DNA of 44,903 nucleotides from a virus (taxonomy: Duplodnaviria > Heunggongvirae > Uroviricota > Caudoviricetes). The stretch lies in the IMG/VR virus record IMGVR_UViG_2718217885_000015. The stretch is one strand, 5' to 3'. How positions within the stretch are numbered: the first letter of the stretch is position 1; each line of letters opens with the position of its first letter. Below the pieces are notes generated by a model. It ran no database searches. It saw only the letters and a program-made list of their open reading frames with translations, and had not been told where the DNA came from. Positions 589 to 44,903 of this stretch are shown in pieces. A program made the position numbers and the translations under genes.

Positions 589-3500
589 TACTCAATGCGT
601 ACAAAAAGACCGATAAAGCCACGCTGAGTACCATAATTGTTACCCAGGCCCGAAAGCGCCGTGTAACGACCGGGGAAGTTGTATTCACCGGCACCGCCAA
701 TCACAACCTGCGGTGAGGATGCGTATGTCCCTGTATCACTAACCTGTGCACTCATGGCCAGAGGACCAAGACGGGAACCCGGCACAGTATCACCGAGTCC
801 CAGAGAAGCATTTTCACCAAAACTTTCTCCCTGATATACCGCCATAATCGGCACACCGACGGCCGGGTATTGGTAATATGAGAACGGACCATTACCGGCG
901 GTTGAGGACATCAGATATGCCAGGGAGTTGCCGTCATACACAATAAGGCTTGATGTTGCATTCCAGCTGTTACCACTGTAGCGATAACGCATACAATGTA
1001 TGCTGTGCTCATCCTCGTAATACTGGTTGTAGTACAGCAGCGTTTTGAATTTACGCGCTGAGTCTGAACCATCGTTATCAGAGGGTGACCACATCACATC
1101 AATGATACCGTTAAATTTCGTGGTGCCCACCAGCAGCGTGGAGGAGTCCGCAATACTGACCGCATAACGCCCCGGGGTGACTGTCTGCAGCCATATAACG
1201 AAATCAGCCTGTCCGTTAAATGACAGAGCTTCGGCGCTGGTGAATGCCTGTCCAAACCCATACATCCCGGACAGGGCCAGCCTGCCCGGTGTGCGGTCAC
1301 GGATATCACTCTGGGGTTCCATCGTCGCAGCCGCGCTCAGCTCAAGCTCCGTGCGCATGGCTTCAGCCGTGTCATGCGCCAGCAATGCGCGGCCCTTCTC
1401 TGACAGCAGAGACAGTGAGGCATTCCCGTCCGTATTGAAGTACAGAAGATTATCTGCCCGTTGCGTCAGTGCGCTGATTGCCGTTAAGACGTCATTAAGC
1501 GGTTGTTTGCCTGCCAGCGCGTTTGTGATTGTCGTCGCAAAGTTCGGGTCATTGCCCAGCGCCGCTGCCAGCTCGTTCAGGGTGTCCAGAACTTCCGGCG
1601 ATGAGCCAACCAGCGCAGCAAGCAGTTTGCGCACAAACGCTGCGTTCGCTGCTTCCAGACCGGCGGCATCATCCGGTGGGGTTGGGGTGGTTGGGGTGCC
1701 GGTGAAGGCCGGGCTGTCCAGTGGCGCTTTTGTTTTCGTCTCGTCCATGACGGTTTTGACAGCCTTTGGCGTGGCAGCCAGTTCCTCGCTGTCGTTGTCC
1801 GTATCACTACACAGTTGCACCAGACCTTTTTCTGTCGTGGAGGCATTTGTTGCATTCAGGTCATCAACTATCTGCTGCGCCTCATCCCTGTACTGTTTCG
1901 CTTCCTGCGCATTGTCTGCACCTGCATCCTGGCTGGCTTTAGCCTGTCGGGCGTATTCAGCGGCGCTGTTTTCATGCCCGAGTGCAGCATTTGCTGCATT
2001 TTCCGCGCTGGTTGCAGCTGATGATGCGGCATTATGATAAAGGCGGGCACGTTCGGCGGCATCGACTGATTCGTCCCGCGCTGTGCCTGATGACTGTGCG
2101 CTGTTTTCTGTCTCCCCGATTTTTTGGGTCACTTCAGCAATATCACTCTCTATCTGCTGATTGATCTCATCCTCCAGTTGCTCAACTTCACTGCGCAATG
2201 CCGAGGCATTAATACGATCGTTCAGCTCCTGCCCCAGCAGGGTGCTGTTTATTTTCCCTTCAAAAAAATTGAGATACACCTCAGCATCGTTACCCGGCTG
2301 GCCAACAGCCTCCACAAATGCCGATTTGCCGACGGTATTCACACTGCGAACGTAAAAATAATAATTATTGCCCGGCTCAATATCCGGTCCGGAGGCTATC
2401 CAGTACAGCGCCGTACCAAGATAGCGGGCTGTGGTTTCAACCTGCCTGATATCGATAATCCGCTTTTCCGATAACCAGAACTCAAACTGTACCGTCGGGT
2501 CATATACAGCCAGTTTCGGGACCGCCGTTATCTGAAAATACCCCGGTATCAGTTCAATAGTGACAGGCGCTGCCGGTGCCGCAATCCGGAACGATACCGA
2601 CGCCGGATCACCCTGCTGCCCCCGGGCATTTACCGCCCGGACCGTCAGCATATAACGCCCCAGCGCCAGTTGTCTGAAGCGGTATGTGGTTTCCGTCGTC
2701 CGGGCTGTGCTGACCAGCCGCTCACTGCCGTCGTCCGCTGCCACGGTCAGGCGAAGCATGAAGCTCACGCCCTTCACCACCTTCGGCGTGTCCCAGCGGG
2801 CCAGTACCTGATACTCCCCGCTGTCTGCGGTGACTTCGGCGGTAAGGTGCTGCACCGCTGGCGGTGTGACACCATTCACCGTGCCGCTCTGGTCGCCGTC
2901 AAAGTGCGCCCCGTTATCCACGATGGCTTCTTTTTCCGGTACATGCTGCACGGCAGTGATGGCATACGTGCCGTCGTCGTTCTCACGGATACTCACGCAG
3001 CGGAACAGGCGCTGGCGCAGCGTCGGCAGCTTCAGCCCCCACACGCTGTATTCGGCAACGCCGTCAGGAACACGGCTCACTTTCACCTTCATGCCGTCGG
3101 TGACGGACTGAACCTCCACGCTGACCGGATTGCCATTTCCGTCAACCAGGCTTATCAGCGTGGTGCCGGAGGATGGCAGCGTGATTTCACGGTCGAGCGT
3201 CAGCGTCCGGGTCTGGCTGTTCACCGCCAGCACACGACCACCGGTGCTGATACCGGCATAGTCATCATCACAGATTTCAATAACATCGCCCGGTACATGG
3301 CGAAGCCCTTCGGCACCCACGCTGAAGTCCACGGTCTGCGTTTCCAGCAGTTCCGTTTTAATCAGCCACAGCCCGGCGCGGTGCGCCTGCCCCCGGCTGG
3401 TACAGCCAAAGGCATCCATCTTCGTGACGTTACGACCGTAACGGGCAATGGCCTGCGTGTCCTCCACAAGCTCTGTTGCCGTCTCCCAGCCGTTGTCCGG

Positions 3501-4715
3501 GTCAATCCAGTTCACCTCAACGGCATTATGGCGGTCCTTCAGGGCGCTGAAGCTGTAGCGGAACGGCGCGCCATCATCCGGCATCACCACATTACTGCGG
3601 TTATAGGTCCACACCTTATCTGATGGTCGGTCCTGCACGAACGTCAGCGTCTGCCCGTTCCATACCGGCATACAGCGCATCGCCGAGCAGAAATCACTGA
3701 GCACATCCCACGCCTTGCGCTGTGTGGTCAGGTACGCATTACAGGTGATGCGCGGCTCCGTGCCGCCAAAACCGTCCGGCACCGACTGATCGCAATGCTG
3801 GCCGATGACATACAGCGCCCATTTGTCCACATCCGCCGCACCAAGACGTTTCCCCATGCCGTAGCGCGGATGGGTCAGCATATCCCACAGACACCAGGCC
3901 GGGTTGTTGCTGTATGCCGGCTTAAACGTTCCGTCCCAGATACCGCTGTATTGCCGCGTCTGCGGGTTATAGTTCGACGGCACCTGCAGAATGCGCCCGC
4001 GCAGATGATAATTACGGCTCACCTGCTGGCTGCCGAACTGCTCCGAATCCACCTGCACGCCGACCAGTGCCGTGTTCGGGTAGCACTGTTTCACATCGAT
4101 GATTTCAGTGTATGACGACCAGAGCGTTTTGTTCTGCAGCTGGTCTGTGGTGCTGTCCGGCGTCATCCTGCGCATCCGTATATTGAACGGGCGCGGCGGC
4201 AGGTTACCCACCACCACCGAGGCCAGATACTGCGAGGTGGTTTTGCCCTTAATGGTGATGTCTTTTTCCGTCACCCAGCCACCATTACGCTGGATCTGAA
4301 CCAGCAGGCGGACTTCCGACGGATTCCGGTCCCCCTTTGAGGTGGTTTCCACCAGTGCCTGCACACCGAAGGTAAAGCGCAGACGGTCAATGTTTGCAGA
4401 TGTGATGGTCCGGGTGATCGGCGTGTCGTATTTCACTTCCGTACCCAGCACCGTCTCGGAACCGGAGGATTCAAATCCCTCCGGCGGTGCCTGCTCCTGC
4501 TCACCTGCCCGGAACACGACCGTGACACCGGAGATGTTGGTATTCCCCTCAGTGTCCAGCACCGGCGTACTGTTCAGCAGCACGCTTTTTAATCCATCCA
4601 CCGGACCTTCAATCGGCCCTTCGCTGATGGCATCAATCACACTCAGTAACTGCGTGGACTTCAGGTTGTCCTTCGCTTCGCGCGGGGTATGCCCCTTACT
4701 GCTGCCTTTACCCAT
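588..4715 (-). CDS. J: Host specificity / central tail fibre protein J, with a side-tail-fibre-like C-terminal region
   Basis: 1375 aa; the first ~800 residues align with lambda J as I recall it (e.g. [21 protein letters not shown]); the C-terminal ~550 aa carry a conserved tail-fibre motif (TEKGLVQL...AATPKAVK...[13 protein letters not shown]) and a Gly/Tyr-rich distal region instead of the lambda J C-terminus. Confidence 0.9.
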
Positions 4716-22572: not shown

Positions 22573-23022
22573 TCACTCAGCCCGGTACCAAACAAACTGG
22601 CGATGTTTTTTATCCCGTTTCATGTCAGCGCATACCTGATTGAGTTCTTCCATCACGCTCATTCGACGGGGATTAACGACAAAACCCTTCGTCCAGTATT
22701 CATAGAGAACATCGTCGCACTCTTCCTGATACTGAATGACCCTGTCGCGGATTTCAGGTTTAACTTTGTTGGGATTGATGGTTTGTAACCAGCCCGCAAG
22801 TTTTCGAAGTGGCAGGGATACCATATTGCGTCGTTTCCCATCCTCAGCAACCATAATGATTTCCGTTATAGTTGACGCAAAACGCTGTCTTAACTTAGCC
22901 AACTGTGATTGCCAGGCTAGCCCCATCCCCGCAACAACAGGCTTCATGGGAACGTACGGCTCGCCATTATGGTTAACCACATAAAGAGAGTTGCCGTGAA
23001 ACGGCACGGTCATCATATTCAT
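22573..23022 (-). CDS. Phage antirepressor-like protein (Ant/KilA-N-like) between endolysin and Rz
   Basis: 149-aa ORF; I recall a similar antirepressor-like gene between R and Rz in some E. coli lambdoid prophages; assignment by position and weak motif resemblance only. Confidence 0.45.
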   Translation of the reverse strand: MNMMTVPFHGNSLYVVNHNGEPYVPMKPVVAGMGLAWQSQLAKLRQRFASTITEIIMVAEDGKRRNMVSLPLRKLAGWLQTINPNKVKPEIRDRVIQYQEECDDVLYEYWTKGFVVNPRRMSVMEELNQVCADMKRDKKHRQFVWYRAE

Positions 23023-25141: not shown

Positions 25142-25443
25142 ACCCCGTCTCCCGTTATCCGGAAGCTGACAACAATAAAAAAGCCACCCGTTAATTACTG
25201 ATGGCTCTGATGCATAAACGTCATCATTCCTGACCGTTATGATTGACAATGGTTATCATTTTTATATAAAAATACTCCCGATATGTGTTACATATCATTT
25301 CTCCACGGGGAATATCCCCACGCCAGCGTCAGACTCGTTTTCCCGTTCTCTTCTGTGCTGGCGTTTTTTTATTATGATGTCGGTGCATTTATTTCCAGCA
25401 CCAGGCTTTCAATCTCAACACCATACGCGGAATTTTTGGGCGT

Positions 25444-25469
25444 AAAAAATCCCCTCCGGTGAGGGGATT
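25444..25469 (-). terminator. Rho-independent terminator upstream of the holin (candidate tR')
   Basis: Stem AATCCCCTC/GAGGGGATT with a 4-nt loop; the A-run on the plus strand gives a U-run on the minus strand. Confidence 0.5.
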
Positions 25470-25701
25470 TGCTTATGTAAACATTTACACTGCTTACCTG
25501 CATGGTGCCGGGTGCCTCCCGGTGAATTCAGTATCAGCACCTGAATCCGCAATTATCCCATATACCTACTTGCTGATTGCCCCTCCGCACAGGGGGATTC
25601 ACCATGCGAAATTTTTTTAACAAATGCTCAGTCTGACAGGCAACTGTCAACTGACTGAATTGTGAGACAATTAAAATTTTCGGGGCGTAACTGATACCCG
25701 G

Positions 25702-25866
25702 TTAACTACCTGGCATGTCCTTTTTCACCAAAGGAAAAAGCACCACCACAATACCGACCACCAGCACTCCATCCGCCAGCACCGACATGATCCTGCTGGT
25801 GAAATCCACCATCACCACCAGAAACAGCAGGAGTGCCACAGCGGCCAGACGCAGTTTTACCGTCAC
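25702..25866 (-). CDS. Small hydrophobic protein (54 codons) coupled to the TerB-like gene
   Basis: GTG start overlaps the TerB-like TGA stop (CTGTGACGG); translation VTVKLRLAAVALLLFLVVMVDFTSRIMSVLADGVLVVGIVVVLFPLVKKDMPGS shows two hydrophobic segments; below the ORF-track size cut-off. Confidence 0.4.
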   Translation of the reverse strand: MTVKLRLAAVALLLFLVVMVDFTSRIMSVLADGVLVVGIVVVLFPLVKKDMPGS

Positions 25867-26294
25867 AGGTGGTTCTCCAGTCGCAGGCCAAGAACACCAG
25901 CAATCTCTTCCAGAACCTTACGCTCTTCCGGCTCAATTTCACCATCTGCTTCAGCAATGGCCACCGCCACATCCAGCACATCTTCCGCTTCACGCGTATC
26001 GTGTTTCACATCTTCAATTTCACGCAACGCTGCACGACGACCAATTTTAAAATTGGTGTCAAGCTGACCTGTGATCGTGGCACTGATGGCATTAATTTCT
26101 GACGTAAATGCGGACAATGCTGGCTGGTTACGTAATACCTGTTCGATCTTCGCTTTCTCTGAAGTCTCACATTCACCATCTGCATAGGCCACCAGGTAGG
26201 CAGCATTAATAACCGCCTGTGCCAGATCGCGTTTCTCAAACTTTTTAATTTCAGTTGCTGCTCTGCGGGTTTTCTTTTTGAAAATACCAAACAT
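25863..26294 (-). CDS. TerB-like (tellurite-resistance TerB family) protein
   Basis: 143 aa; repeated acidic helices (VINAAYLVAYADGE... and VAVAIAEADGEIEPEERKVLEEIA) typical of the TerB fold. Confidence 0.65.
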   Translation of the reverse strand: MFGIFKKKTRRAATEIKKFEKRDLAQAVINAAYLVAYADGECETSEKAKIEQVLRNQPALSAFTSEINAISATITGQLDTNFKIGRRAALREIEDVKHDTREAEDVLDVAVAIAEADGEIEPEERKVLEEIAGVLGLRLENHL

Positions 26295-26467: not shown

Positions 26468-26544
26468 TGGCGCGTTGTACTGGATTCGAACCAGTGACCG
26501 ATTGCTTAGAAGGCAATTGCTCTGTCCGACTGAGCTAACAACGC
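26468..26544 (-). tRNA. argO: tRNA-Arg (anticodon UCU)
   Basis: Folded by hand: acceptor GCGTTGT/ACAACGC, D-arm GCTC/GAGC, anticodon stem ATTGC/GCAAT with loop CTTCTAA, T-arm ACTGG-TTCGAAT-CCAGT, encoded CCA; 77 nt. Confidence 0.85.
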
Positions 26545-26557
26545 ATGATGCAGATAA

Positions 26558-26638
26558 TGGACCGCCATCGAGGACTCGAACCCCGCACCAACAACCCTGT
26601 TATCGTGTCGTCTGCTCTTCCTGATGAGCTAATGGCGG
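26558..26638 (-). tRNA. tRNA-like sequence with canonical acceptor, D- and T-arms but a non-canonical anticodon arm (possible pseudo-tRNA; argN-like position)
   Basis: Acceptor CCGCCAT/ATGGCGG, D-arm GCTC/GAGC, T-arm CGGGG-TTCGAGT-CCTCG and CCA are present, but the 27-nt region between D- and T-arms (GACGACACGATAACAGGGTTGTTGGTG) gave no standard 5-bp stem with 7-nt loop in my manual fold. Confidence 0.5.
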
Positions 26639-26645
26639 TATGTTA

Positions 26646-26721
26646 TGGTGGCCCTTGCTGGATTTGAACCAGCGACCTGGCGATTATGAGTCGCTCGCTC
26701 TCACCACTGAGCTAAAGGGCC
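26646..26721 (-). tRNA. ileZ: tRNA with anticodon CAU (Ile2/lysidine-type or Met; ileZ-like position)
   Basis: Acceptor GGCCCTT/AAGGGCC, anticodon loop CTCATAA, T-arm GCTGG-TTCAAAT-CCAGC, CCA encoded; 76 nt. Confidence 0.85.
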
Positions 26722-27970: not shown

Positions 27971-28258
27971 TTACTGGCAGCGTCTGAATTTATTCCCGTA
28001 CCCGCCGTTATCCTTCGCCAGACCCGCCAGAACTAACTGAGTCAGTATTAACTGGCACCGGACTTCGCTTACTCCGGTAGTTCTCGTCATCATGCGTGGC
28101 GTTACCCACTTGTCAGCAGGTAAGAAATGAAGGACTGCGGCGGCGGTTTCTGTCATATCTTGCTGTTTTAGCATGTTTTTTCCCTTCTGGTTAAGATGAC
28201 ATACCAATAACTCTTGTCTAAAAAGCCAGCAAGATAAAAAGTCAGTATTCACGACCAC
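27971..28258 (-). CDS. Hypothetical protein
   Basis: 95-aa ORF, possibly starting at the internal Met (MLKQQDMTE...); no recognised domain. Confidence 0.35.
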   Translation of the reverse strand: MVVNTDFLSCWLFRQELLVCHLNQKGKNMLKQQDMTETAAAVLHFLPADKWVTPRMMTRTTGVSEVRCQLILTQLVLAGLAKDNGGYGNKFRRCQ

Positions 28259-28283
28259 CAGCGTGTTTACTGTACTGCACCAA

Positions 28284-28306
28284 GTTTACAGGTACAAAAA
28301 AACCGC
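28284..28306 (-). terminator. Short hairpin plus U-run terminator on the minus strand (alternative tR' candidate)
   Basis: Minus strand CCGC-TGA-GCGG stem within CCCGCCGCTGAGCGG, followed by T7. Confidence 0.4.
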
Positions 28307-28350
28307 TCAGCGGCGGGTTTAAGTTGTGTGGCGAAGTAACCACTCTTAAC

Positions 28351-28379
28351 AGCATATTTGATTTTTTACGATTGTAAAC
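28351..28379 (-). promoter_or_regulatory. Candidate sigma70 promoter on the minus strand (possible late promoter PR')
   Basis: -35 TTTACA (28379-28374), 17-nt spacer, -10 TATGCT (28356-28351); lies about 40-60 nt upstream of the 28284-28306 terminator. Confidence 0.3.
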
Positions 28380-28443
28380 GGTTGATTATTCATCTCCAAT
28401 AAAAATAATTGTGTAGGTATGCCCTTAACAATGGATAAGAAAC

Positions 28444-28890
28444 ATGAATAAAATGACTGTATTATTACTTAGCGCAACTATCATTTCAGGTTGTACTTCT
28501 TCCGTACCATTGATAAAGAAAACTCAATCAGGAAAACCTGAGGGGGTTTATCAAAATACGACAAAAGATAAAGTCAAAGATGCCCTTGTGAATTACTGCA
28601 ATAGTAGAGGGTTGATAATTTACAACGCGGATAACAGCAGTGTTATATGTGGTAAAGAACTGGAAGGCGGGTCTGCTGTTTTTGGACAAATGTTAATCGG
28701 CAATGCCTATTCAACAACCCCGGTATCAAAAGTCAGATTTACTATCGCTCAAGTTAATAACGATACAAAAGTGTGGGCCGATATGTGGATGGAAACTCAA
28801 ATGGCAATGGGGCAAGTACAACAAATGGCTATAACAGACAACGCAAGCAAAAACACTATCCAACAACGTCTTGATGAATTAAAACCTTAA
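28444..28890 (+). CDS. Lipoprotein of unknown function (moron, opposite strand to the surrounding operon)
   Basis: 148 aa; signal peptide with lipobox LLSATIISG-C; AT-rich; a candidate TTGATT-17-ATAATT promoter lies upstream. Confidence 0.7.
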   Translation: MNKMTVLLLSATIISGCTSSVPLIKKTQSGKPEGVYQNTTKDKVKDALVNYCNSRGLIIYNADNSSVICGKELEGGSAVFGQMLIGNAYSTTPVSKVRFTIAQVNNDTKVWADMWMETQMAMGQVQQMAITDNASKNTIQQRLDELKP

Positions 28891-28975
28891 GTAAATTAAT
28901 TAAATAAAATGGGGAGAAATAAATCGACTCCCCACACATTAAACTGATTCAATTACCCCCTCAATAAGAGGTCTT

Positions 28976-29356
28976 CTAACGATCCATCTCTAGCTCAATT
29001 TCTAACATCATTAACATGCCATCAACTACACCTTCAGCCTTTTGCAATAAACGCCCAACCCAGCAATCAGAACGCCCATGTTTACGGGCAAGCGCCATAA
29101 ACGTCATACCACCTACATAATAATCCACTAATAAATCGTGCAAATCGCTGTTGTTCTTTTTCAGGCGAGCCATGCACCCACAAATGATCATCGCGTCATC
29201 GTCACAACATTGCGGGCGGGATTTTACTTTTGAAGGGATTAGTCCTTTAAATCCTGCAGCAATAGACGACCAGGTGACATCCTCGTGATTATTTGCCACC
29301 CATGCCCCCCAACGTTCAAGAACCATTTGAATATCACGCATCAACTTTCTCCACAA
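28976..29356 (-). CDS. Q: Late gene antiterminator Q (phage 21/82 or QuuD type)
   Basis: Resembles recalled DLP12 QuuD ([14 protein letters not shown]..., Cys cluster [16 protein letters not shown]); likely start at Met6 (29341). Confidence 0.8.
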
Positions 29357-34649: not shown

Positions 34650-35249
34650 GGCAGCCTCCGTATGCAATGGATAACTTCCACCACCGGAAACGCCAATTTC
34701 GCTGGTGGTGAACTGAGCAGGGTTGGCGTAACCGGCGCATACGGAAACCGGCGCACCTTTCGGTGCCCCCACCCAGCCCACCATAATTTGGGTATAGCTG
34801 AGTTGTAGCAACAAAAAAGACGCTAACGCGCCAATTGTCGCCGTATGCAATTCCAGGACGCCAATCCCGGCACCCGCTTTATAAGGTGCCTGAACAGTGT
34901 AACGTCCCGGAATGGCAGAATCAATGTGCTGGTGGTCCTTCACACTCAACAAAATCACGCCTGAATTTCCACAAAGGGCTAAAGCACTCATGCGGGTAGT
35001 CTTTGCGAAGATAGATAACGCGCTGTGTTTCTGGCTCCCAACGAATAACATGAACATAAAGTCCTCTTCCGTCACGAAACCAGCGGTTAAGTTCCTGCAC
35101 AACTCGCCACCCACAGTCAGGTAAAGTTCTCTGTGGTTACTTACAGCCAGGAGATTTGGTAATCTGCATTCATGCCGTAACAACAGGTGTTCAGCGACCC
35201 TGACCACCAGCTGTTGCGACAAACGGTTATTTGCCGTTAAACTGTTCAT
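34650..35249 (-). CDS. Uncertain: upstream in-frame part of the 382-aa ORF (separate gene, N-terminal domain of a longer Rha protein, or non-coding)
   Basis: In-frame ORF continuing upstream of the Rha start; its ATG at 35249 overlaps the stop of the cII-like gene, which suggests coupling, but the sequence has no recognisable domain. Confidence 0.25.
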
Positions 35250-36131: not shown

Positions 36132-36806
36132 ATGAAAACAGTCCATGACATCCGGCGGTCTAACGCCAGAAAACTGAGAGATGGTGTTGGCGGGAATTCT
36201 TCCTTTGCCACCATGATTGATCGCGAACCAACCCAGACCAGCAGGTTTATGGGAGATGGTGCTACTAAAAATATCGGTGACAGCATGGCACGGCACATCG
36301 AAAAATGTTTCGACCTGCCTGTCGGATGGCTTGATCAAGAACACCAGACAACGAACATCACAAAAAAACCTGATGTTTCAATCACTAATAAACAAATAAC
36401 GCTAGTCCCTGTCATATCATGGGTACAGGCCGGAGCATGGAAAGAAGTTGGCTATTCTGAGGTTGATTTGAGCACAACAGAAACATATCCCTGCCCTGTA
36501 CCCTGTGGCGAAATGACTTATATATTGAGGGTGATTGGTGATTCAATGATTGATGAGTACCGTCCGGGGGACATGATTTTTGTCGATCCAGAAGTACCAG
36601 CCTGCCACGGCGATGACGTTATTGCATTGATGCACGATACAGGTGAAACCACCTTCAAAAGGTTGATAGAAGACGGGACACAGCGTTATCTCAAAGCATT
36701 AAACCCCAACTGGCCTGAGCCTTACATTAAGATAAACGGTAATTGCTCTATCATTGGTACAGTTATTTTCTCAGGAAAACCAAGAAGATACAAAATTAAA
36801 GCCTGA
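36132..36806 (+). CDS. cI: CI-type prophage repressor (N-terminal HTH, C-terminal S24 LexA-like autopeptidase)
   Basis: 224 aa; Ala-Gly cleavage site (VQAGAW), catalytic Ser (GDSM) and Lys (FKRL) of the S24 domain. Confidence 0.85.
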   Translation: MKTVHDIRRSNARKLRDGVGGNSSFATMIDREPTQTSRFMGDGATKNIGDSMARHIEKCFDLPVGWLDQEHQTTNITKKPDVSITNKQITLVPVISWVQAGAWKEVGYSEVDLSTTETYPCPVPCGEMTYILRVIGDSMIDEYRPGDMIFVDPEVPACHGDDVIALMHDTGETTFKRLIEDGTQRYLKALNPNWPEPYIKINGNCSIIGTVIFSGKPRRYKIKA

Positions 36807-43664: not shown

Positions 43665-44903
43665 TTATTCAATAGGCTGTCTGTTGGAACCTAAATTAGT
43701 GTAAGTAAGAATCGAATCAACCCTATCCCACCATGCCTGATAGGCTTTACGCTGTTCTTCTAGATAATCGCTCTTATCATAAACTTGCCATACCCCTGGC
43801 AGTTTATGACCGAGCATTATTTCAGCAATATGAGGCGCAGTAAGATCAGAAAAGTTTGTTCGTGCTGTTCGTCTCAAATCATGAAGAGACCAATGAGGAA
43901 ATTGATACCCCAAACGCCGCCATGCGTACTGCATTAAATTGTAAGGCAGCGACTGCAATGATGTCCGACCAACTGGCTCCTTGCTTCCTTCCTTGGTAAA
44001 AAGCATATCGGAACCGTTGTTCATAGAGATAACGTATTTTATAAGCTCTTCAACCGGTTCAATAATGGGGCGCTTTAGCGGTTCGCCTGTTATATCACCT
44101 GTCTTATGTCGTTCTGGCGGTACAGTCCATACCTTATTAATGAAATCAAAATCATCCATCCTGGCAGTAATCAGCTCTGAACTACGACAGCCGAAATGCA
44201 GCAATAGTTTAATGAAGGCCCGGTATTTGGGAACCATTCGAGAACCATCGATCGCAGCATAAAGGATTTTAATTTCATCGTGTGTCAGAAACCGTTTCTT
44301 CTGACCTTTACGGATATCCATATCTTTACCCGTGATATCCGACAGAGGGCGAGTTTCAATGAGCTTTCTCTTATACGCCCAGACATGGGCCTGCTTTGCG
44401 TTAATTAGCAATCGGTCTGCTATTGCTGGAGTCTTAGTGCTAAGAGGCTCCAGGACCTCTAACCAATCATGCAATGTAGCTACATCGTGAGGGATAATCC
44501 CGATTTTAGAGAACAGGTGCAGTTCAAATGAGCGGAGTATCTGCTCAGAACCTTTTTTATTTTTTACACAATATGCGTCATACCAGGCACGGATCACAGA
44601 CTCCACCGTCATGGCTTCAGTAGCTTTGCGTTTTTCTGCCTGCTTGACCAATCGTGGATTGCGGTTTGACTCGAGTTCACCACGAAGACGGATAACTTCT
44701 TCTCTGGCCTCTTTTAGTCCAGTTGCCGGGTAAGTTCCGATATCAAGACGCTCACCTTTCCCTGCCCATTGATAACGATATTGGAACACTACGCGACCTT
44801 TCGGTGATACTCTGACAGACAGACCATCCCGATCTGATTTAACCAAAACCTTATCACGTTCCTTTCCAACGACTGAACGCAACCACGCATCAGAAAGCGC
44901 CAT
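43665..44903 (-). CDS. int: P4-type tyrosine integrase
   Basis: 412 aa; N-terminal MALSDAWLRS...GLSVRVSPKGRVVFQYRYQW typical of P4-family integrases; C-terminal catalytic region (HDLRRT...GH...Y); ATG at the last base of the window, so complete but with no upstream sequence. Confidence 0.9.
   Translation of the reverse strand: MALSDAWLRSVVGKERDKVLVKSDRDGLSVRVSPKGRVVFQYRYQWAGKGERLDIGTYPATGLKEAREEVIRLRGELESNRNPRLVKQAEKRKATEAMTVESVIRAWYDAYCVKNKKGSEQILRSFELHLFSKIGIIPHDVATLHDWLEVLEPLSTKTPAIADRLLINAKQAHVWAYKRKLIETRPLSDITGKDMDIRKGQKKRFLTHDEIKILYAAIDGSRMVPKYRAFIKLLLHFGCRSSELITARMDDFDFINKVWTVPPERHKTGDITGEPLKRPIIEPVEELIKYVISMNNGSDMLFTKEGSKEPVGRTSLQSLPYNLMQYAWRRLGYQFPHWSLHDLRRTARTNFSDLTAPHIAEIMLGHKLPGVWQVYDKSDYLEEQRKAYQAWWDRVDSILTYTNLGSNRQPIE

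Follow-up and report, generated by a model that had tools for sequence, protein, structure and literature searches.

In the Shiga toxin (Stx) phages 933W and Sakai Sp5 and Sp15, the source of the small RNA (sRNA) StxS, the gene for the antiterminator Q runs straight into the late promoter PR': a Q of 144 amino acids (aa) overlaps the -35 hexamer of the promoter, and no gene intervenes. The start of the Sakai PR' transcript has been mapped by differential RNA sequencing (dRNA-seq) and the 3' end at the terminator tR' by Term-seq, 258 nucleotides (nt) apart (Sy et al., PMC7547250); the transcript, from which StxS derives, extends as far as a second terminator at +258. In the phages PA-2 and 434B and in prophage DLP12, the porin gene lc/nmpC occupies the interval between Q and PR' in opposite orientation, and in Lambda_ev087 Q is followed by an opposed outer-membrane lipoprotein gene, the lipocalin gene blc. 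In prophage Perceval of strain LF82, a gene annotated as porin NmpC has been described as a moron, transcribed in the lysogen 10-fold above the prophage background (PMC9928086). Here, we describe the corresponding locus in the IMG/VR virus record IMGVR_UViG_2718217885_000015, a stretch of 44,903 nt (the window, meaning this whole stretch), which comprises an entire lambdoid prophage; its late operon is on the minus strand. Between Q and PR', where the Stx2a phage has no gene and PA-2 and 434B have a porin gene, the window holds a lipoprotein gene. Comparison with 5426 complete Escherichia coli genomes and with phage records makes it probable that an AT-rich cassette of about 600 bp, directed against the late operon, has been inserted between Q and its cognate PR'. 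The arrangement is already known in kind, being a moron in the known Q/PR' slot together with a late cassette of the Stx/DLP12 type.

The cassette between Q and PR'

The Q gene of the window (28976-29341, minus strand) encodes 121 aa and matches PF06530 at E=2e-51, which places it firmly in the Q21 family; within that family it is of the 933W/QuuD subtype. The protein is 79% identical, across all 121 aa, to the 144-aa Q of the Stx2a phage, 85% identical to Q of the 434B/DLP12 type and 93% identical to that of Lambda_ev087; Q21 chains in the PDB are matched distantly (E=7e-9). The mechanically called open reading frame is slightly longer (28976-29356, minus strand) and begins at a TTG codon, and both the alignment to relatives and the RefSeq/GenBank annotation put the real start at Met6. 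The PhiR40_1 record and RefSeq both give the gene a length of 366 nt.

The boundaries of the cassette follow from the homology to other phages of this Q subtype, which breaks on the left at 28379/28380 and resumes on the right within two codons of the Q stop, at about 28978-28982. The interval from 28380 to about 28978, of roughly 600 bp, contains a candidate promoter, the lipoprotein gene and 3' hairpins, and has a GC content of 33.5-40.5%, compared with about 50% on either side. Set beside the Stx phages, it takes the place of the final 23 codons of a 933W-type Q. A first-pass annotation, made from the sequence of the window, had noticed a lipoprotein gene just downstream of Q, opposed to the late operon, and had called it a moron. 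The gene is indeed there, at 28444-28890 on the plus strand, and the designation is apt: the DNA is AT-rich, it is present or absent among otherwise homologous phages, and homologues of the gene elsewhere lie at other positions. The complete arrangement is found in 184 of the 5426 E. coli genomes and in the phages PhiR40_1 and PhiR55_1. The records of both phages were submitted as complete genomes and name an E. coli host, a hint that the layout of the cassette is compatible with lytic growth.

The Stx phages share with the window the Q subtype, the promoter, the spacer element CGTAAAAA, the initially transcribed TAAGAGTGGTTAC and the first hairpin with its U-run. They differ in the features described above: the Q of the window lacks the last 23 residues, and the 600-bp cassette separates it from PR'. 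The likeness to PA-2, 434B and DLP12 extends to the Q subtype, the slot, the opposite orientation, the PR' block and the outer-membrane destination of the product, whereas the cargo of these phages is a 16-strand porin and their cassette measures 1.7 kb, or 2.9 kb with IS5. In 434B the terminator is oriented with nmpC; in the window, by contrast, the U-tail of the hairpin lies on the Q strand. Lambda_ev087 resembles the window in its Q, in the opposed outer-membrane lipoprotein gene that follows and in a promoter with the same -35 hexamer and spacer (GTTTACAATCGTAAAAA...TATGAT) further downstream. Its lipoprotein, however, belongs to another family, its island is larger and includes a YbgA-like gene, a terminator resembling tR' of the Stx phages stands directly after Q, and the region transcribed after the promoter is not conserved. 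(In the Lambda_ev087 record, these features downstream of Q lie at 2842-2865, 2283-2807 and 1059-1086.) Perceval carries the same Q subtype and the same PR' block, 1.66 kb apart, which is the spacing seen in the porin-bearing phages and from which the position of its nmpC is taken here. On these sequence comparisons, the Q/PR' junction of 933W/QuuD-type phages is a recurrent site for opposed genes of known or predicted outer-membrane proteins, namely Lc/NmpC, Blc and the lipoprotein of the window.

The late promoter, its leader and the first hairpin

The late promoter PR' lies at 28351-28378 on the minus strand and consists of TTTACA (28378-28373), a 16-nt spacer that holds the conserved CGTAAAAA, and TATGCT (28356-28351). 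The two hexamers are those picked out in the first-pass annotation, which had counted a spacer of 17 nt, and its suggestion that this promoter is PR' is supported by homology to the Stx2a-phage promoter TTTACG-16-TATCAT, the start of which is mapped by dRNA-seq (PMC7547250). The 1.8-kb region contains eight promoter-like matches, against 3.8 +/- 2.2 in shuffled sequence, an excess of only about 2-fold; consensus matches alone therefore prove little, and the case for PR' rests on comparison. The core motif GTTTACRNNCGTAAAAA occurs once in the window, with 0.01 occurrences expected. The conserved block, from 28379 to about 28296, reads GTTTACAATCGTAAAAAATCAAATATGCTGTTAAGAGTGGTTACTTCGCCACACAACTTAAACCCGCCGCTGAGCGGTTTTTTT, and 65-85 nt of it are kept in hundreds of phage records, with a conservation of about 86% in PA-2, 434B and some 30 further lambdoid phages among the records listed, and of about 76% in the Stx phages.

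This block is met in three settings. It abuts Q in the Stx2a phage VT2phi_272 and in Sakai Sp5, where the Q frame crosses the -35 hexamer of PR' and stops within the spacer; it follows the opposed porin gene lc/nmpC in PA-2, 434B and the roughly 30 further phages among the records listed; and it follows a lipoprotein gene of the window type in PhiR40_1, PhiR55_1 and the 184 E. coli genomes. A late promoter directly after Q, within 28891-28975, was considered as well, but the poor TTGAGG-17-TAATGT found there by eye is conserved nowhere and was dropped in favour of the conserved block.

The Sakai RNA that ends at the last U of the tR' U-run begins 258 nt upstream, at an A located 7 nt past TATCAT. 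By alignment with it, the late transcript of the window probably starts near A28344. The initially transcribed region, GTTAAGAGTGGTTACTTCGCCACACAACTTA (28319-28350, minus strand), is conserved in 434B, PA-2 and the Stx2a phages and is missing from phages that have a lambda-type Q and in which the whole downstream sequence is shared. PR' and the first 30 or so transcribed bases accompany the 933W/QuuD-type Q whatever comes next, be it the holin gene in 434B, the StxS region and tRNAs in the Stx phages or the methylase gene in the window. Promoter and leader are therefore presumed to hold loading signals specific to this Q subtype, and two conserved stretches, CGTAAAAA within the spacer and TAAGAGTGGTTAC beyond the start, are candidate Q-binding or pause elements. 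Since Q acts in trans, a moron that separates the Q gene from PR' should be harmless.

Behind the leader stands a hairpin followed by seven U's (AACCCGCCGCTGAGCGGTTTTTTT; 28296-28318, minus strand), at about +27 to +49 of the transcript, which is the candidate tR'. Its predicted stability is -6.3 kcal/mol, compared with -11.2 to -12.6 kcal/mol in relatives, and it is weaker because its 3' arm reads GCGGT instead of GCGGG. PhiR40_1 and two further E. coli genomes that were checked share this G-to-T change, which roughly halves the predicted stability. The hairpin is annotated as a 'terminator' in phage Ayreon. Ayreon and phage 720R4 encode a lambda-family Q (PF03589) and are about 98% identical to the window from the hairpin onward, through a 67-aa gene and the methylase gene, and share no sequence with it upstream of the hairpin. 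Such a pattern would be expected if a Q-specific promoter and leader had been joined to a generic, exchangeable terminator module.

An intrinsic terminator is found between PR' and the late genes, though a weak one, and a short PR'-tR' transcript of about 49 nt is plausible. In the PR'/tR' pair that the first-pass annotation had proposed, PR' stands and tR' is only partly secure, the hairpin being weak here and its stronger homologue being read through in Sakai. A strong minus-strand terminator, GGCTCGCTTTTGCGGGCC followed by six U's (26454-26437), lies just after tRNA-Arg and before the TerB and lysis genes; it could serve as a second barrier to transcription from PR'. With blastn at a word size of 7, no homologue of StxS, taken as the 3'-terminal 74 nt of the Stx-phage PR' transcript, was found in the window, where only chance matches of 11-18 nt turned up elsewhere, and the region contains no Rfam family (STnc130 scores 26 bits against a threshold of 55); an StxS-like sRNA was set aside on these grounds. 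As a separate observation, the PhiR40_1 record annotates a 37-aa 'hypothetical protein' at 3444-3557, corresponding to 28243-28356 on the minus strand of the window. Its ATG lies within the -10 hexamer of PR' and its frame spans the terminator, and it is almost certainly a spurious call.

The lipoprotein, its expression and competing explanations

The lipoprotein precursor (28444-28890, plus strand) has 148 aa, starts with ATG and begins MNKMTVLLLSATIISGC, with a signal peptide of residues 1-16. The lipobox ISGC reported in the first-pass annotation, with its cysteine at position 17 (codon 28492-28494), passes a PROSITE-type lipoprotein rule, as do the lipoboxes of 19 of the 21 aligned homologues, and the cysteine is invariant in all 21. 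At +2 the window protein has Thr, and the 19 homologues scored have Ala, Thr or Val. From the absence of Asp at this position, the product is predicted to be sorted by the Lol system to the outer membrane. The mature chains always contain exactly two further cysteines (Cys52 and Cys69 in the window protein), which is consistent with a single periplasmic disulfide.

No Pfam or NCBIfam model (E<=0.01-0.1) and no PADLOC defence-system family (E<=0.01) matches the protein, and an identity as a component of a known defence system was accordingly rejected; the only assignment obtained is PHROG 3152, of unknown function. A word-index search returned 31 relatives, all from Enterobacterales, and an exhaustive profile search returned 823 cluster representatives at E<=1e-3. 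The protein thus appears to belong to a large, unnamed and presumably periplasmic family with a domain of about 145 aa, for which there is no Pfam model. Some distant members carry C-terminal PDZ, TPR/YfiO-like or SHOCT modules (P0106, P0142, P0187, P0100, P0105 and P0116), and two others (P0051 and P0054) have instead a Cys-rich C-terminal extension without a Pfam match.

The structure model of the lipoprotein is confident, and its fold matches, which include domains of BamC and Flpp3, point to a BamC-like alpha+beta fold. The resemblance to BamC domains, to Francisella Flpp3 (DUF3568) and to the TBP-like lipoprotein folds of DUF4468 comes with sequence identities of 6-15% and with Foldseek E values that are all above 1e-3. 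As the fold is also common to eukaryotic KA1 domains and SRPBCC proteins, it implies no function. Two other identities were discarded on the way. The weak PHROG matches to an 'Rz-like spanin' (E 0.02-0.04) cover just the signal peptide, and the UniRef name 'VirB7' of a Xenorhabdus homologue was treated as an automatic label based on the lipobox.

A candidate sigma-70 promoter for the gene is located at 28382-28409 on the plus strand, with TTGATT (28382-28387), a 16-nt spacer and AATAAT (28404-28409). It matches the consensus at 9 of 12 positions, lies wholly inside the cassette, predicts a start at about 28415-28416 and is unchanged in three variants of the cassette. The first-pass annotation had read it as TTGATT-17-ATAATT; TTGATT is kept, but ATAATT agrees with TATAAT at only two of six positions, and AATAAT with a spacer of 16 is the better choice. 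The promoter is not conserved upstream of distant homologues, where a shared promoter was looked for and given up: the regions do not align, and only a Shine-Dalgarno-like TGGA motif recurs. The sequence nevertheless makes it a plausible promoter of the lipoprotein gene. It stands back to back with PR', the two -35 hexamers being 3 bp and the two starts about 72 bp apart, so the footprints of polymerases on the two promoters would be expected to overlap.

At the other end of the cassette, a hairpin with a 7-bp stem (TGGGGAG/CTCCCCA), an 11-nt loop and a U-rich tail occupies 28892-28934 on the minus strand, with its inverted repeat at 28910-28916 and 28928-28934. The minus-strand fold of 28890-28975 has a predicted energy of -24 kcal/mol (z=-2.46). 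Judged by its sequence, the 28910-28934 hairpin is more likely to stop transcripts that come out of Q than to terminate those of the lipoprotein gene.

A working scheme for the locus would be as follows. In the lysogen, PR' would fire constitutively and most of its transcripts would end at or soon after the first hairpin; upon induction, Q-modified polymerase would read through into the 67-aa gene, the methylase gene, the tRNAs and the lysis genes. The lipoprotein would be expressed from a sigma-70 promoter within the cassette (TTGATT-16-AATAAT), which points away from PR'; sorted by the Lol system to the outer membrane, it would contain a single disulfide and adopt a BamC-like alpha+beta fold.

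Several observations weigh against this scheme. No convincing -10-like hexamer that could serve the 933W/QuuD subtype as a sigma-dependent pause element was found near the PR' start. The plus-strand promoter agrees with the consensus at only 9 of 12 positions, and matches of this kind exceed those in shuffled sequence by about 2-fold in the region, and the cassette contains no canonical plus-strand terminator, the U-tail of its hairpin being on the Q strand. Further, the homologous hairpin of Sakai (+25 to +49), which is the stronger of the two, lies within the 258-nt StxS_L RNA, so polymerase must pass it at least part of the time. This last point, together with the reduced stability that the G-to-T change gives to the hairpin of the window, also speaks for a different account of 28318-28296, in which the hairpin is not an effective late terminator, transcripts in lysogens largely run through it, the 67-aa gene, the methylase gene and the tRNAs are expressed constitutively, and the real barrier ahead of the lysis genes is the terminator at 26454-26437, the next good one on the minus strand. 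Set against such leakiness are the seven U's that follow the hairpin, its preservation as a unit at a recombination boundary in phages of two Q families, and its position in 720R4, where it is the sole terminator-like site between a lambda-type Q and the late genes; moreover, in the Sakai work an RNA as short as about 50 nt may have been missed by the libraries and on the Northern blots. We regard a largely ineffective hairpin as a serious possibility, though not a likely one, and retain the scheme in which most lysogen transcripts from PR' stop at or soon after it.

Whether the lipoprotein gene is expressed in the lysogen at all is the subject of another alternative, in which the gene is silent, for instance silenced by H-NS, or encodes an envelope protein of the lytic cycle. 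In seven of eight other contexts, the homologue lies on the same strand as the neighbouring phage genes, six times in a tail module, where late transcription could read it; the promoter evidence in the window is weak, and AT-rich DNA is a typical target of H-NS. The gene of the window, however, is antisense to both the Q and the late transcripts and lies upstream of PR', and it therefore belongs to no phage operon and needs a promoter of its own. Its reading frame is intact and nearly invariant in the 184 genomes, four homologues elsewhere carry their own downstream terminator, a GC-rich hairpin with a U-run, inside tail operons, which is the classic layout of a moron, and Perceval, whose Q subtype and PR' block are those of the window, expresses its porin gene nmpC in the lysogen (PMC9928086). 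A silent or lytic gene is thus improbable, and expression from within the prophage remains the preferred reading. A further alternative is that the product is a serum-resistance or virulence factor of the Bor/Iss type; the first-pass annotation had named a Bor-like role in host fitness or virulence as one possibility and superinfection exclusion as another. The gene does resemble lambda bor in being a prophage-borne gene for an outer-membrane lipoprotein that opposes the late operon, and 434B is annotated with a bor/iss-like gene after Rz. The resemblance, though, is one of analogy only: the protein shows no sequence or family relation to Bor/Iss and matches neither the Bor Pfam family nor any other Pfam or NCBIfam model, its best assignment is the functionally unnamed PHROG 3152, it has 148 aa and a BamC-like fold, and bor follows Rz rather than lying between Q and PR'. 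A role of the Bor/Iss type is therefore very unlikely.

We tentatively suggest instead that the lipoprotein is a lysogenic-conversion factor that alters the envelope and most likely acts in superinfection exclusion, at adsorption or at DNA entry. The suggestion draws mainly on the location of the homologues, which are biased toward host-recognition genes. Prophages of Salmonella, Citrobacter, Jejubacter, Phytobacter and other genera carry them, at differing positions, and in all contexts recovered they are phage-borne. Six of eight lie in a lambda-like tail-tip/tail-fibre module, where they stand between H and M, between K and I/J or downstream of J; one of the remaining two lies in a nin region, and the context of the other is unclear. 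The receptor-blocking lipoproteins Cor and Llp also adjoin tail genes. Like the window protein, Cor (phi80, N15 and T1) and Llp (T5) are small outer-membrane lipoproteins encoded by phages, and the homologues of the window protein often sit, as they do, by tail-tip or receptor-binding genes. No homology to either was detected, however, and some 24 kb separate the gene of the window from J. That phages with the lipoprotein might have the receptor-binding end of J in common was considered and not borne out: in the one full-length comparison available, homology was confined to the N-terminal 700 or so residues, and this J does not share the C-terminal receptor-binding region with J of the window. 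Searches of Pfam, NCBIfam, PHROG and PADLOC gave no link to a known exclusion protein; both results count against the suggested function. It is a more speculative thought, and one to which we would give rather little credence, that the family forms a novel group of exclusion lipoproteins which block receptors or phage entry, and that the promoter of the gene in this lineage is interlocked with PR' in a geometry like that of lambda PR/PRM, such that occupancy of PR' and expression of the conversion gene would influence each other. On the same speculative reading, a lipoprotein transcript left unterminated could act as an antisense RNA to the 3' end of Q, by analogy with paQ of lambda.

Prophage context and meaning

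The prophage carries an integrase gene (43665-44903), a gene for a CI-like S24 repressor (36132-36806) and lambda-like tail genes, including that of a 1375-aa J protein. The order on the minus strand is Q, DNA methylase gene, two tRNA genes and lysis genes. The first gene of the late transcript (27971-28174, minus strand) encodes 67 aa and belongs to PHROG 331, of unknown function; its mechanical open reading frame reaches 28258 through a GTG start. In E. coli OkiPb01716, the Q gene, the lipoprotein gene, PR' and a gene of the 67-aa type are followed by a gene for a helix-turn-helix protein instead of the DNA methylase gene, so the late-operon module beyond the cassette is itself mosaic.

Further downstream, a gene for a TerB-domain protein lies between the tRNAs and the holin gene, the TerB/tRNA stretch comprising 25863-26294 and 26468-26721, both on the minus strand. 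ARAGORN reports tRNA-Arg(TCT) and a tRNA with a CAT anticodon, which it calls Met. The RefSeq annotation of the identical locus in strain 09-00049 has tRNA-Ile at the latter position, and the Sakai homologue of this tRNA is ileZ; RefSeq also lists, between the two, a third tRNA ('tRNA-OTHER') that ARAGORN does not report. A full-length Rfam match to the sRNA STnc100 (149 bits; 25438-25636, minus strand) is found just upstream of the holin region. Unusually, the lysis cassette has a gene with the antirepressor N-terminal domain P22_AR_N (22573-23022, minus strand) inserted between the lysozyme gene and Rz. At 34701-34889 on the minus strand, the Rfam families of C4 antisense RNA (81 bits) and of the Hfq-binding RNA isrK (61 bits) match side by side, a pair that resembles the c4/ant immunity module of the P1/P7 type, here within a lambdoid prophage.

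Overall, for a type of prophage found in about 3% of complete E. coli genomes, the analysis settles where the late promoter lies, where transcription from it probably starts and where the cassette begins and ends. The phage-borne members of the large, unnamed family of the lipoprotein cluster with host-recognition genes, and the protein could be included in an exclusion screen at little cost. Moreover, given the weakened first terminator after PR', the leakiness of the late operon in these prophages may differ from that in the Stx phages with which they share the promoter.

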